NCBI GenBank assembly: GCA_016865985.1
Contig: VGNO01000001.1
Span: 1-51,367, forward strand
Source: Chloroflexota bacterium
GTDB taxonomy: Bacteria > Chloroflexota > Anaerolineae > Anaerolineales > Villigracilaceae
Length of the DNA stretch: 51,367 bases
Direction of reading: 5' to 3'
Shown here: positions 18,314 to 20,981 of the stretch, piece by piece
How the letters are laid out: every line of letters starts with the position of its first letter
Numbering within the stretch: the stretch's first letter is position 1
Notes under the pieces: model-generated
The model's database searches: none
The model's input: only the letters and a program-made list of their open reading frames with translations
What the model was told of the DNA's origin: nothing
Position numbers and translations under genes: made by a program

Positions 18314-20224
18314 ATGGCTGTTACCAATGGAAGTTATGAAGCAAAAGATATCCAGGTCCTGGAGGGACTGGAGGCCGTCCGGCGGCGTCCCGGCATGTAC
18401 GTGGGCGGGACGGACCTGAAAGCCTTGCACCACCTGGTCTACGAGGTGGTGGATAACTCCATCGACGAAGCCCTGGCAGGCTCCTGCAGCCGGATCGAGG
18501 TCGCCATCCACCCCGACAGCAGCGTGACGGTCGAGGACAATGGGCGCGGCATCCCGGTCGACATGCACCCGACCGAGAAGAAATCGGCCCTGGAAGTGGT
18601 GATGACCAAGTTGCACGCCGGCGGCAAATTCGGCGGCGGCGGGTACAAGGTATCGGGCGGTCTGCACGGGGTCGGAGTCAGCGCCGTCAACGCCCTCTCG
18701 GAATGGTGCGAGGTCGAGGTGCGGCGTGGCGGGCAGGTCCATTTCCAGCGCTACGAGCGCGGCTACCCCAGGGAACCGGTCAAGGTGGTCGGCAAGGCGA
18801 AGGAAAGCCAGTCCGGCACCCGCACCACATTCAAGTTCGACCCGCTGATCTTCCTCAACGAACTGGATTTCAAATTCGAGACCCTCACCCAGCGCTTCCG
18901 CGAGATGGCTTTCGTGACGCGCGGCGTGACCATCCATTTCGTGGACGAACGTTCCAGCCGCCAGATGACCTTCTATTTCGAAGGCGGCATCCTGTCCTTC
19001 GTGCGTTACCTGAACCGCAACCGCGAGAACCTGCACCCGGCGGTCTATGTCGAAAAGCAGGTCGAGAACATCGGCATCGAGGCCGCCATCCAGTTCACCG
19101 ATGCCTATACCGAGTCGGTCTACTCGTTTGCCAACACCATCAACACCGTCGACGGCGGCACCCACCTGACCGGCCTGCGCTCGGCCATCACGCGGGTCGT
19201 CAACGACTACGCCCGCAAAGCCGGGCTGCTCAAGGACGCCGACCCGAACTTCACCGGCGACGACACCCGCGAGGGGCTGACCGCCATCGTCAGCGTCAAG
19301 CATCCCGACCCGCAGTTCGAATCGCAGACCAAGGTCAAGTTGATGAACCCCGAAGTGCAGACCTACGTCCAGCAGGTGGCGGGCGAGGCCTTCTACACCT
19401 TCCTGGACGAGAACCCCCAGGCGGCCAAGTCCATCATTGCCAAGTGTCTCACCTCCGCCCGCGCCCGCGATGCCGCCCGCAAGGCGCGCGATCTGGTCAT
19501 CCGCAAATCTGCGCTGGAGAGCCTGACCCTGCCCGGCAAACTGGCCGACTGCTCGGAGCGGGACTCATCCAAGACCGAACTCTACATCGTCGAGGGCGAC
19601 TCGGCCGGCGGCTCGGCCAAACAGGGACGCGACCGCCATTTCCAGGCCATCCTGCCGCTGCGCGGCAAGATCATGAACACCGAGCGCGCCCGGCTCGACA
19701 AGATCCTCTCCAGCAACGAGATCAAAGCGCTCATCTCGGCCCTCGGCACCGGCATCGGCGACAACTTCGACCTCGAAGGCCTGCGCTACGGGCGGGTGGT
19801 CATCATGACCGATGCCGACGTGGACGGCAGCCACATCCGCACCCTGCTGTTGACTTTCTTCTTCCGCTACATGGCGCCGCTGATCGAGGAGGGACATCTC
19901 TATATTGCCCAGCCGCCGCTCTACCGCCTGGCCTGGAAGAACCAGGTGCGTTACGCCTACAGCGACGGCGACAAGGACAAGATCCTGAAGGACCTGGGCG
20001 GCGAGAAGACCAACCTCCAGCGCTACAAAGGCCTGGGCGAAATGAACCCGCAGCAACTGTGGGACACGACCATGAACCCTGCCAACCGCACCCTGCTGCT
20101 GGTGGCCATCGAGGACGCCGCCGAAGCCGACCGCACCTTCGACATGCTGATGGGCGACGCGGTGGACCCGAGGAAGCGGTTCATCCAGACCCACGCCAGG
20201 AGCGTGAGGAATTTGGATATATAA
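18314..20224 (+). CDS. gyrB: DNA gyrase subunit B
   Basis: [56 protein letters not shown] and [17 protein letters not shown] motifs. 636 aa. Confidence 0.97.
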
Positions 20225-20254
20225 TTGATTGGCAATGGAAATTCGGTGAATGCA

Positions 20255-20560
20255 ATGCAAAAGAAGAAGTTCCGCATTCCGCGCAAGAAGATCAACGAAT
20301 TTTGCCGCCGCTGGGGAGTGGTGGAACTCTCGTTATTTGGCTCGGTTTTGCGCGCTGATTTTCGTCCCGACAGCGATGTGGACGTGCTGGTCACATTCTC
20401 CAAGGAGGCGCAGATCAGCCTGTTCGATTTGGTGCAAATGAAACTGGACCTGGAGGAAGTCTTCCATCGCCCCGTGGATATCATCGAGAAGGACGCGCTG
20501 GAGAACCCATTCCGCAAGCGGGAAATCCTCAGAACCGCGCAGGTGGTCTATGCTGCCTGA
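20255..20560 (+). CDS. MNT-type nucleotidyltransferase antitoxin (type VII HepT/MNT system)
   Basis: GSVLR.DF...SDVDVLV minimal-NTase motif. ATG at 20255 is preferred over the TTG at 20225. Overlaps the downstream HepT gene by 11 nt. Confidence 0.8.
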
Positions 20561-20891
20561 CGAGAGGAACCTGTCCTATTTGTGGGACATGCGGAAATAC
20601 GCTCTGGAAATCACGGAGATCGCCAAGGGCATATCGCATTCAAAGTTTGTCGAGAACAAAACGATTCGCTATGCCATCGAACGCCTGCTTTTGATCGTTG
20701 GCGAAGCGGCAAATCACATTTCCAGTGAATTCCAGGCTGCGCACCCCGAGATCGAGTGGGCGCAAATCATAGGTTTGCGGAATATTCTGGCGCACGAATA
20801 CGGTGAAATAAAGATGGACAAGGTCTATCTCGCGGCCACGAAGAGCGTCCCGGCATTATTGGAGCGTTTACACCCTCTTCTCCCAGAGTGA
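20550..20891 (+). CDS. HepT-like (DUF86/HEPN) ribonuclease toxin
   Basis: HEPN Rx4H motif in RNILAHEYGEI. 113 aa. Paired with the upstream MNT gene. Confidence 0.85.
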   Translation: MLPDERNLSYLWDMRKYALEITEIAKGISHSKFVENKTIRYAIERLLLIVGEAANHISSEFQAAHPEIEWAQIIGLRNILAHEYGEIKMDKVYLAATKSVPALLERLHPLLPE

Positions 20892-20900
20892 TTTTACCCA

Positions 20901-20981
20901 ATGCTCATGGGCGACGCTGTGGATCCGAGGAAGCGGTTCATCCAGACGCATGCCAGGAGTGTGAGGAATTTGGATATTTAG
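20901..20981 (+). pseudogene. Displaced duplicate of the gyrB 3' terminus (last 26 codons plus stop)
   Basis: Aligns codon-for-codon with 20144-20224 and encodes the identical peptide [26 protein letters not shown]. 8 of 81 nt differ: seven synonymous third-position changes plus TAA versus TAG. Confidence 0.85.

Follow-up and report, generated by a model that had tools for sequence, protein, structure and literature searches.

How does a small toxin-antitoxin (TA) cassette come to be bracketed by a duplicated housekeeping-gene end when no mobility gene is annotated nearby? The question is raised by contig VGNO01000001.1 (assembly GCA_016865985.1) from a Chloroflexota bacterium, of which positions 1 to 51,367 form the window analysed here, the window being this whole stretch of 51,367 nucleotides (nt). 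Directly behind gyrB the window carries two genes, predicted to encode a minimal nucleotidyltransferase (MNT) antitoxin and a HepT-like toxin, and behind these the last 26 codons and the stop codon of gyrB occur a second time. Our analysis suggests that the downstream copy most likely arrived with the cassette from a related lineage. Because cassettes of this family are bracketed by long direct repeats at many targets unrelated to one another, we favour, with some reserve, an integrase-free insertion with long target duplication, coupled to recombination-borne spread between lineages, as the best explanation of the locus. The features on which this rests are the following.

18314 to 20224, plus strand: gyrB coding sequence, 636 amino acids, intact, with the Pfam domains HATPase_c, DNA_gyraseB, Toprim and DNA_gyraseB_C
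20144 to 20224, plus strand: left repeat, called c1, the functional gyrB terminus (26 final codons and TAA)
20220 to 20225, plus strand: TATAAT hexamer, a candidate -10 box across the junction of gyrB and leader (final codon ATA, stop TAA, one leader base)
20225 to 20254, plus strand: leader, left edge of the inserted unit, 30 nt from the gyrB stop to the MNT start
20255 to 20560, plus strand: MNT-type minimal nucleotidyltransferase, predicted antitoxin, 101 amino acids (PF01909, 66 bits; GSx10DxD motif intact)
20550 to 20891, plus strand: HepT-like HEPN RNase, predicted toxin, 113 amino acids (PF01934, 82.8 bits against a cut-off of 23.5; Rx4H motif RNILAH intact)
20892 to 20900, plus strand: spacer, right edge of the cassette, 9 nt from the HepT stop to the right repeat
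20901 to 20981, plus strand: right repeat, called c2, a detached gyrB terminus of 26 codons and TAG with cassette-like or relative-like codon usage

A repeat search over the 51-kb window found the two copies as a single ungapped 80-nt pair (20144-20223 and 20901-20980, 91% identity), and no other long repeat of this kind was found near gyrB. Compared directly, c1 and c2 are identical at 73 of 81 positions (blastn E = 2.7e-28), with a longest uninterrupted identity of 23 nt. The eight differences, at repeat positions 6, 18, 24, 48, 51, 60, 78 and 81, all fall on third codon positions and are silent; both copies encode the same peptide of 26 amino acids and end in TAA in c1 as opposed to TAG in c2. 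An earlier sequence-only reading of this stretch had described the recurrence in just these terms, and recomputation matched it exactly. Its statement that the similarity stops at the edges of the repeat was likewise confirmed, as neither flank can be aligned: upstream, c1 is preceded by ccttcgac and c2 by ttttaccca, and downstream they are followed by ttgattgg and aaaagtaa, respectively. The 676 nt that separate the copies contain two open reading frames (ORFs) only, those of MNT and HepT.

Two strain variants of the gyrB end, stitched by an assembler around a common cassette, would produce a similar picture; the source is a metagenome and the copies do look like strain alleles. We consider the chance of this to be negligible. 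Both copies are present base for base in seven independently assembled contigs from seven samples (JGI, Logan) that went through differing pipelines, and an eighth contig contains c2. The junctions between HepT and c2 and between c1 and the leader are unique sequences that must have been present in the reads, and at most 23 nt of shared identity is too little to mislead assemblers at their final k-mer sizes. Since the identical two-copy structure appears in seven contigs from seven samples, the assembly artefact that the sequence-only reading had named as a way in which its proposal could fail is excluded.

Which of the copies is the newcomer can be approached through codon usage. The cassette has a GC content of 0.53 compared with 0.63 for gyrB, and GC content at third codon positions (GC3) is 0.879 in the resident gyrB, 0.885 in c1 and 0.731 in c2. 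The corresponding values are 0.74 for MNT, 0.65 for HepT, 0.72-0.84 for the gyrB genes of relatives and 0.81-0.85 for most of the neighbouring genes checked; a GC3 as low as that of c2 is reached in just 1.3% of 26-codon windows of the resident gyrB. At the first six differences c1 has the codon preferred by the host gyrB in every case (CTG, GCG, GAC, ACC, CAC and AGC), at five differences a G or C in c1 stands against an A or T in c2, and the likelihood ratio favours a resident c1 and a cassette-like c2 over the reverse by about 220. The seventh difference is reversed, with c1 ending in ATA, the sole ATA among the 32 isoleucine codons of gyrB; this ATA and the TAA that follows are atypical of the host, whereas c2 ends in ATT TAG, like the relatives. 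Because c1 is resident-like in codon usage and GC3, and the GC3 of c2 is like that of the cassette and of the relatives' gyrB, c1 is most likely native and c2 most likely arrived with the cassette.

The simplest model would dispense with a second lineage altogether: one insertion duplicated 81 nt, after which c2 persisted in place as a fossil of an older terminus with lower GC3 and c1 followed a rise in GC3. The five differences at which c1 has G or C where c2 has A or T, together with the lower GC3 of the relatives, are what such a history would leave behind. Repeat identities elsewhere in the cassette family span 83-100%, as for events of varied age, and the bracket shared by two loci described below, L149 and L168, has persisted through about 12% divergence. 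What speaks against in-place divergence is the absence of any non-silent change, since a neutral c2 should gain mostly changes of that kind. With c1 constrained, c2 neutral and a per-change silent probability of 2p/(1+p), where p is the silent fraction of possible mutations, the probability that 8/8 differences are silent is about 2e-4 to 6e-3 depending on the assumed mutation spectrum, even when a GC-to-AT bias is allowed. Moreover, the high GC3 of the neighbouring genes suggests a bias that should act on c2 and the cassette too, yet both remain at 0.65-0.74. We therefore regard divergence purely in place as unlikely, though deserving of some weight. The composition and the silent differences instead give strong grounds to propose that c1 and c2 diverged as working gene ends in different lineages, and equally strong grounds to propose that the cassette and most of c2 were imported from a related Anaerolineales lineage of lower GC3. 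The earlier claim that one gyrB terminus stems from another lineage is thus upheld by the improbability of eight silent differences arising in place.

The sequence-only reading had, however, assigned the foreign origin to the upstream copy and taken the downstream copy as the original, and here the codon usage, the likelihood ratio and the GC3 of c2 reverse its orientation. In that version, c1 and the gyrB tract upstream of it would have been donated through one-sided homologous recombination completed by an illegitimate join, leaving c2 as the displaced native end. Both copies would then have evolved as working termini, as observed, and the remnant of a family-typical gyrB terminator does follow c2; the final ATA and TAA of c1 are also atypical for the host. 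Entry by homology on one side and an illegitimate join on the other has been documented (PMC3240628), and transformation can generate duplications that keep an essential gene intact (PMC3784515). Nevertheless, a donated c1 would not be expected to carry the host-preferred codon at 6/6 sites with a GC3 equal to that of the rest of gyrB, nor a native c2 to lie in the lowest 1.3% of gyrB windows when the genes on both sides are GC3-rich. The native right flank does not discriminate, because it is expected under every insertion model. Taken together, these observations make a donated c1 decidedly unlikely.

The relatives of the source organism, which lies in the Anaerolineales, indicate how the site may have looked before the insertion. 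The nearest GyrB proteins in a large protein collection are 91-92% identical, with many more at 85-88%; in a genome collection, the best-matching species representatives, Pelolinea submarina among them, are no more than 78-79% identical. Relatives at 91-92% share the upstream genes with the window and have an EamA-family gene about 50 nt after gyrB, with one gyrB terminus and no TA pair. In a relative at 88% (loci L096 and L097) the gyrB stop is followed by 10 nt, a hairpin terminator and a convergent gene of 233 amino acids, again with one terminus and no TA pair. A second gyrB terminus was found in none of 80 gyrB loci of other species. The single gyrB end and missing TA pair in relatives with 88-92% identical GyrB, together with the differing composition of the cassette, support the proposal that the segment is an inserted mobile or recombined unit. 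Downstream of c2 the window contains four features that bear on the ancestral order.

20990 to 20999, plus strand: ctcccgcagg, left-arm remnant of the hairpin that terminated the ancestral gyrB, 8 nt past the c2 stop; the same 10-mer lies at the same distance from the stop in L096
21051 to 21091, plus strand: terminator-like hairpin with a U-rich tail, 12-bp stem and 9-nt loop; the first strong terminator after gyrB, MNT and HepT
21293 to 22333, plus strand: gene with SdrD_B/CBM96 domains (Pfam), a further insertion by comparison with L096, placed after the terminator remnant and before the convergent gene
22317 to 23033, minus strand: convergent gene of 238 amino acids on the far side of the ancestral site, orthologue of the gene directly after the L096 gyrB terminator

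The terminator in L096 reads ctcccgcagg, ctcagaa, cctgcgggag and tttttttt in turn, and window positions 22345-22420 are homologous at the nucleotide level to L096 6965-7040. Because of the synteny with L096 and the ctcccgcagg remnant behind c2, the ancestral order was most likely gyrB, terminator, convergent gene, and the window most likely gained the TA unit with c2 and, separately, the SdrD_B/CBM96 gene. None of 200 shuffled sequences folds as well as the hairpin at 21051-21083 (free energy -21.8 kcal/mol, z = -3.2), which is followed by uugauuuc; that a strong terminator lies 3' of the downstream copy, as had been stated, therefore holds. The stretch from the gyrB stop to MNT showed no convincing terminator. 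Compared with L096, the spot behind gyrB (20982-22333) has received two distinct insertions or more. The downstream context of gyrB varies among relatives, and the EamA gene in the nearest of them marks the spot as a break-point of synteny.

The wider cassette family provides the evidence on how such a unit could have been inserted. There are 407 HepT homologues with E <= 1e-10, the closest outside the source species being at most 86% identical. We retrieved 80 metagenome loci encoding HepT homologues and tested the 58 cassettes with at least 150 nt on both sides, counting a repeat if the 500 nt ahead of MNT contained one copy and the 500 nt behind HepT the other. Flanking direct repeats were found in 21/58 cassettes, 16 of them with repeats of at least 29 nt, over a range of 18-104 nt and 86-100% identity. 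A control with the same geometry shifted within the same loci gave repeats in 0/48 cases, and random positions in unrelated loci gave 4/168, none of at least 29 nt (Fisher's test, cassette repeats against controls, p ~1e-10). Inverted repeats flanked only 2 of the same 58 cassettes, again none of at least 29 nt, and two of three further close homologues also had flanking direct repeats. The repeated sequence changes from locus to locus and is taken from the adjoining genes, usually as the 3' or 5' end of a housekeeping gene; in each clear case the gene survives in one intact copy. The targets are listed here.

L154: 3' end of the HerA helicase gene (herA) including the stop codon, 80 nt, 91% identical
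L135: 3' end of a Memo-like gene, 79 nt, 86% identical
L149, L162, L168 and L173: 3' end of hisF
L156, 1471-1574 and 2635-2738: 3' end of an unnamed gene of 325 amino acids, 104 nt, 103/104 identical (99%)
L146, 2424-2523 and 3314-3413: start of an ATP synthase subunit gene (5' end with ribosome-binding site), 100/100 nt identical
L108: 5' end of alaS
L102: part of a thioesterase gene

The duplications in L146 and L156 resemble very recent insertion events. That brackets of this kind can be old is shown by L149 and L168, syntenic loci that share a hisF insertion with about 87% identity between them. In L135 the copy within the gene matches the GC3 of the host gene and the detached copy does not. 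Nucleotide homology between cassettes sets in only about 10 nt ahead of the MNT start and ends at the HepT stop; the sequence beyond that stop is not conserved among loci. In the window the homology to other cassettes begins at about 20243-20249, and in several homologous loci the right repeat starts 0-12 nt past the HepT stop. Given these limits of homology and a conserved promoter box, TGcTATAAT, upstream of MNT, the mobile unit is, as judged by alignment, a minimal expression unit of about 0.65 kb from the promoter box to the HepT stop. Bracketed as they are by duplicated ends of differing genes, MNT-HepT cassettes appear to spread with neither an integrase nor a transposase gene of their own. 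Next to the cassette homologue in L180, a second NTP_transf_2 gene lies on the opposite strand between two DUF559 (endonuclease-like) genes (998-2536), an arrangement that suggests a small defence or addiction gene cluster.

The variety of targets also bears on the view, put forward in the sequence-only reading, that the locus resembles islands which target gene 3' ends and restore them. A decayed integrative island could have left the TA pair between its attachment sites as a cis-mobilisable remnant: direct repeats that rebuild the 3' end of a gene are typical of such islands, TA pairs are often their last survivors, and differences that are exclusively silent would suit an attachment site selected to preserve the protein. 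The insert, however, is exactly the cassette, from the leader and promoter to the HepT stop plus 9 nt, and holds no relic of island genes. The annotation from about -10 to +8 kb around the locus lists no recombinase gene, and no mobility domain was seen among the annotated neighbours, in keeping with the earlier remark that no integrase is present. Among IMG/VR viral contigs, none matched a degenerate pattern of the gyrB end for the source family, and the cassette had no match in plasmid or phage collections. Two-gene loci are bracketed at many unrelated targets by repeats of 18-104 nt or more, so that a decayed island would need a different site-specific system each time. We consider this explanation improbable and the likeness to integrating islands a poorer fit than insertion with long target duplication.

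The cargo itself belongs to a known kind of system. In type VII HepT/MntA systems a HEPN RNase is neutralised by its minimal nucleotidyltransferase partner via AMPylation. In the window the antitoxin gene comes first and overlaps the toxin gene by 11 nt, and both motifs that characterise type VII pairs are present, Rx4-6H in HepT and GSx9-13Dx[DE] in an upstream MNT of the same operon. MNT is matched by the minimal nucleotidyltransferase structure PDB 1WOT (E = 5e-11), and no PDB structure was matched by HepT in sequence or profile searches. The NCBIfam models for MntA and HepT score 46.1 and 41.5 bits, each under a cut-off of 60, which places both proteins as predicted family-level relatives only of the characterised MntA and HepT, outside the equivalogs. 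By its domains and motifs, the locus is a type VII-like MNT/HepT TA cassette.

The cassette forms an operon of about 0.68 kb (the 30-nt leader, two overlapping ORFs and the 9-nt spacer) placed right after the gyrB stop and before the first strong terminator. No inverted repeat was found at its ends, and no Rfam match within 17000-24000. The extended -10 box mentioned above lies 17-19 nt upstream of the MNT ATG in almost all cassette homologues; in the window this box is degenerate (20231-20240; homologues with the conserved form include loci L099-L122). A consensus scan found no promoter with a -35 element for the cassette. The TATAAT at the junction, read by eye, is perfect and arises exactly from the two 3'-most differences between c1 and c2, and transcription of the cassette is probably due to read-through from gyrB, to this hexamer, or to both.

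Whether c2 itself might do something has to be weighed at this point. HepT and c2 share a reading frame and are separated by one TGA and three codons (20889-20903; LLPE, stop, FYPMLMGD). Selection could in principle have maintained c2 in place, either as a peptide of 26 amino acids translated by coupling to HepT termination or as an extension of HepT by read-through: its ATG lies 9 nt after the HepT stop, a single TGA intervenes, the copy ends in a stop codon and all of its differences are silent. We found no recognisable ribosome-binding site, the detached copies elsewhere are fragments of unrelated genes that fall in the HepT frame at chance level (2 of 4 checked by hand), and detached copies at other loci do carry non-silent changes. 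A selected role for c2 is thus very improbable. Read-through of the TGA would append the gyrB tail to HepT, yet the shared frame is probably a coincidence, and c2 is probably untranslated.

Insertion with long target duplication, followed by exchange between lineages, can be framed as a cycle. Recombination between the two repeats would delete the cassette precisely, restoring a normal gyrB and releasing a circle made of one repeat and the cassette. After transfer, one homologous crossover at the conserved end of the gene would integrate the circle, or an equivalent fragment, into a related genome and thereby remake the bracket, with copies that differ by the silent differences between donor and recipient. 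In the window the crossover may have taken place in the identical 17-nt block at repeat positions 61-77, because c1 is resident-like up to position 60 and then has the ATA-TAA that adjoins the leader. In c2 the mosaic is reversed: a cassette-like stretch comes first, and the ATT-TAG that follows adjoins the native terminator remnant. Cells that lose the cassette would be penalised through post-segregational killing by the TA pair, and we propose that this penalty is why brackets that are otherwise unstable are seen around addiction modules. We hold this mechanism of circle and crossover, which needs no integrase, with moderate confidence.

Several observations weigh against this interpretation. 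A maximal shared identity of 23 nt is short for recombination of the RecA type, and the position assigned to the crossover depends on one rare codon. No excised circle was found. A cassette-free site in the same species was not found either, as exact-protein look-ups of GyrB, HepT and the SdrD_B protein returned only contigs that bear the insertion. The same holds for a donor lineage with a gyrB ending in the c2 allele beside a near-identical cassette: the closest HepT outside the species is only 86% identical, the closest homologues (83-86% identical; L179-L181) are not beside gyrB, and the search for the same TA pair next to gyrB elsewhere, suggested in the sequence-only reading, gave 0/83 homologous loci that adjoin gyrB. 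In the clear coding cases outside the window, differences fall on codon positions 1, 2 and 3 in the proportion 8/1/23, counted only at loci with long ORFs running into a copy, as automatic frames are unreliable for some short repeats; once a GC-to-AT mutation bias is allowed, this silent-site bias has p ~0.03 and is only suggestive. The 58 loci include near-duplicates such as L168 and L173, and the other loci each come from one assembly. The controls were random positions, as opposed to other accessory genes, which means that a specificity of the bracket to addiction modules cannot be claimed. Finally, the circle model covers the spread of the bracket and not the origin of the duplication, and the long and identical or nearly identical repeats of L146 and L156 imply that another step makes the duplication at new sites. 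By analogy, the laboratory events reported in PMC3784515 and PMC3240628 are plausible relatives of this duplication-creating step.

The movement of chromosomal TA systems is poorly understood, as they are among the most mobile prokaryotic genes and most are without a mobility gene. A mobile TA pair alone will not astonish a specialist; it is the recurrent bracket, free of mobility genes, and the alleles that differ only silently that make TA movement directly testable. The window locus and the bracketed cassettes offer a concrete route, in which a long target duplication comes first and recombination then acts at conserved gene ends. The insertion mode, known before for restriction-modification systems, is seen here with a TA cargo and with evidence of exchange between lineages, and this argues that the common property behind it is addiction or plain homologous recombination and not cleavage of DNA by the cargo. 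More tentatively, it is possible that MNT-HepT cassettes, and perhaps small addiction modules generally, are self-sufficient mobile units that need no recombinase, using the duplicated target as a portable homology arm and protecting the bracket by post-segregational killing. If this is true, circles would land on the conserved ends of housekeeping genes such as gyrB, hisF, alaS, herA and ATP synthase genes of related genomes, the virus-like life cycle of Kobayashi would extend from restriction-modification to RNase TA systems, and DNA cleavage by the cargo would not be what makes the duplication. Detached gene ends that small cassettes leave silently diverged would also be usable markers of inter-lineage transfer in metagenome-assembled genomes.

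Some other features of the window deserve mention. About 5 kb downstream, on the minus strand, a gene for an SfiI-like restriction endonuclease lies beside an N6_N4 methyltransferase gene (~26170-27937; L001 15621-17388); this pair is another addiction-type module, and the window-wide scan found no long repeat flanking it. An ORF of 177 amino acids (3029-3562, plus strand) lies between direct repeats of about 46 nt (2930-2975 and 3632-3678, ~90% identical). It has no Pfam match, and its HLHLV and YIHYNPVRRGY motifs recall HUH transposases associated with IS200 and REP elements. A protein of 671 amino acids (3943-5958) combines seven WD40 blades with a C-terminal FGE-sulfatase domain, and these blades account for a seven-copy repeat family at 4199-5045.

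How does the cassette compare with known systems? Transposons, insertion sequences and miniature inverted-repeat elements differ from it in having terminal inverted repeats, of which it has none, and short, fixed target duplications, where those seen here are long and variable. Integron gene cassettes carry an attC recombination site behind their ORFs, in an array beside an integron integrase; among the loci compared here the sequence past the HepT stop varies, and no integrase is annotated close to the window cassette. Among islands in gene 3' ends, the elements in the fda 3' end of Streptococcus thermophilus are integrase-driven islands and cis-mobilisable remnants that restore the gene end. 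The window resembles such islands in that the direct repeats hold the 3' end of a protein gene, the gene is intact and the displaced copy lies on the far side. It departs from them in the lack of a recombinase within or near the insert, in a repeat that is longer and more diverged than typical attachment cores and in the many targets and repeat lengths of the family; reuse of one attachment sequence was not seen, as the cassette homologues sit at other targets. Compared with characterised type VII HepT/MntA systems, the pair shares the HepT-like and NTP_transf_2 Pfam domains, the Rx4H and GSx10DxD motifs, the antitoxin-first order and the overlapping ORFs, but scores under the NCBIfam equivalog cut-offs, and its activity is predicted from sequence.

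Homologous recombination alone can insert DNA between homologous copies while keeping an essential gene intact, as in merodiploids of Streptococcus pneumoniae (PMC3784515), and in homology-facilitated illegitimate recombination a one-sided homology brings in foreign DNA (PMC3240628). The window shares with such duplications, made by Campbell-type single crossover or transformation, the DNA inserted between homologous copies and the intact essential gene. Unlike these laboratory or large-scale events, its homologous segment is only 81 nt long at 90% identity, and the route appears to be a natural one that recurs in a single cassette family. A further parallel is ccdO157, which, according to the passages of PMC2654758 and PMC3184786 that cite the 2009 study of it, is a chromosomal TA islet standing alone at a variable intergenic site with no mobility gene; the MNT/HepT cassette differs from it in toxin family and in host.

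The closest precedent is the 'insertion with long target duplication' of restriction-modification units, which lack a mobility gene and whose flanks are direct repeats of the target, long (>30 bp) and variable; these repeats can overlap the 3' end of a neighbouring gene and the inserts have atypical GC content (PMC2853133; PMC3874152). A life cycle of invasion, use of the repeats and release has been proposed for them (Furuta, Abe and Kobayashi 2010, PMC2853133; Mruk and Kobayashi 2013, PMC3874152), and both papers cite Nobusato et al. 2000 (Gene 259:99). In the literature that covers both TA systems and this mode, we found no description of a TA module inserted with long target duplication. 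Set against the definition of Furuta et al. 2010, the window has direct repeats well above 30 bp (81 nt, 73/81) and an insert far below 20 kb with no mobility gene in or beside it (676 nt, two ORFs). In place of restriction and modification genes it carries MNT and HepT, another kind of addiction module. As for an empty site, neither a second terminus nor a cassette is present in the relatives with 88-92% identical GyrB, these being different species with varying downstream context. The authors of the restriction-modification work suspect DNA breakage by the restriction enzyme as a common cause of the long target duplication (PMC2853133; PMC3874152), a cause that is inapplicable to the MNT/HepT cassette because its toxin is predicted to be an RNase. 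The likeness to the restriction-modification cases therefore lies in an addiction-type unit without a mobility gene, long repeats copied from the target and atypical GC content. The difference lies in the type VII-like TA cargo and in repeats that, compared with the mostly near-identical ones of those cases, differ by 10% and at silent positions alone, which points to exchange between lineages.

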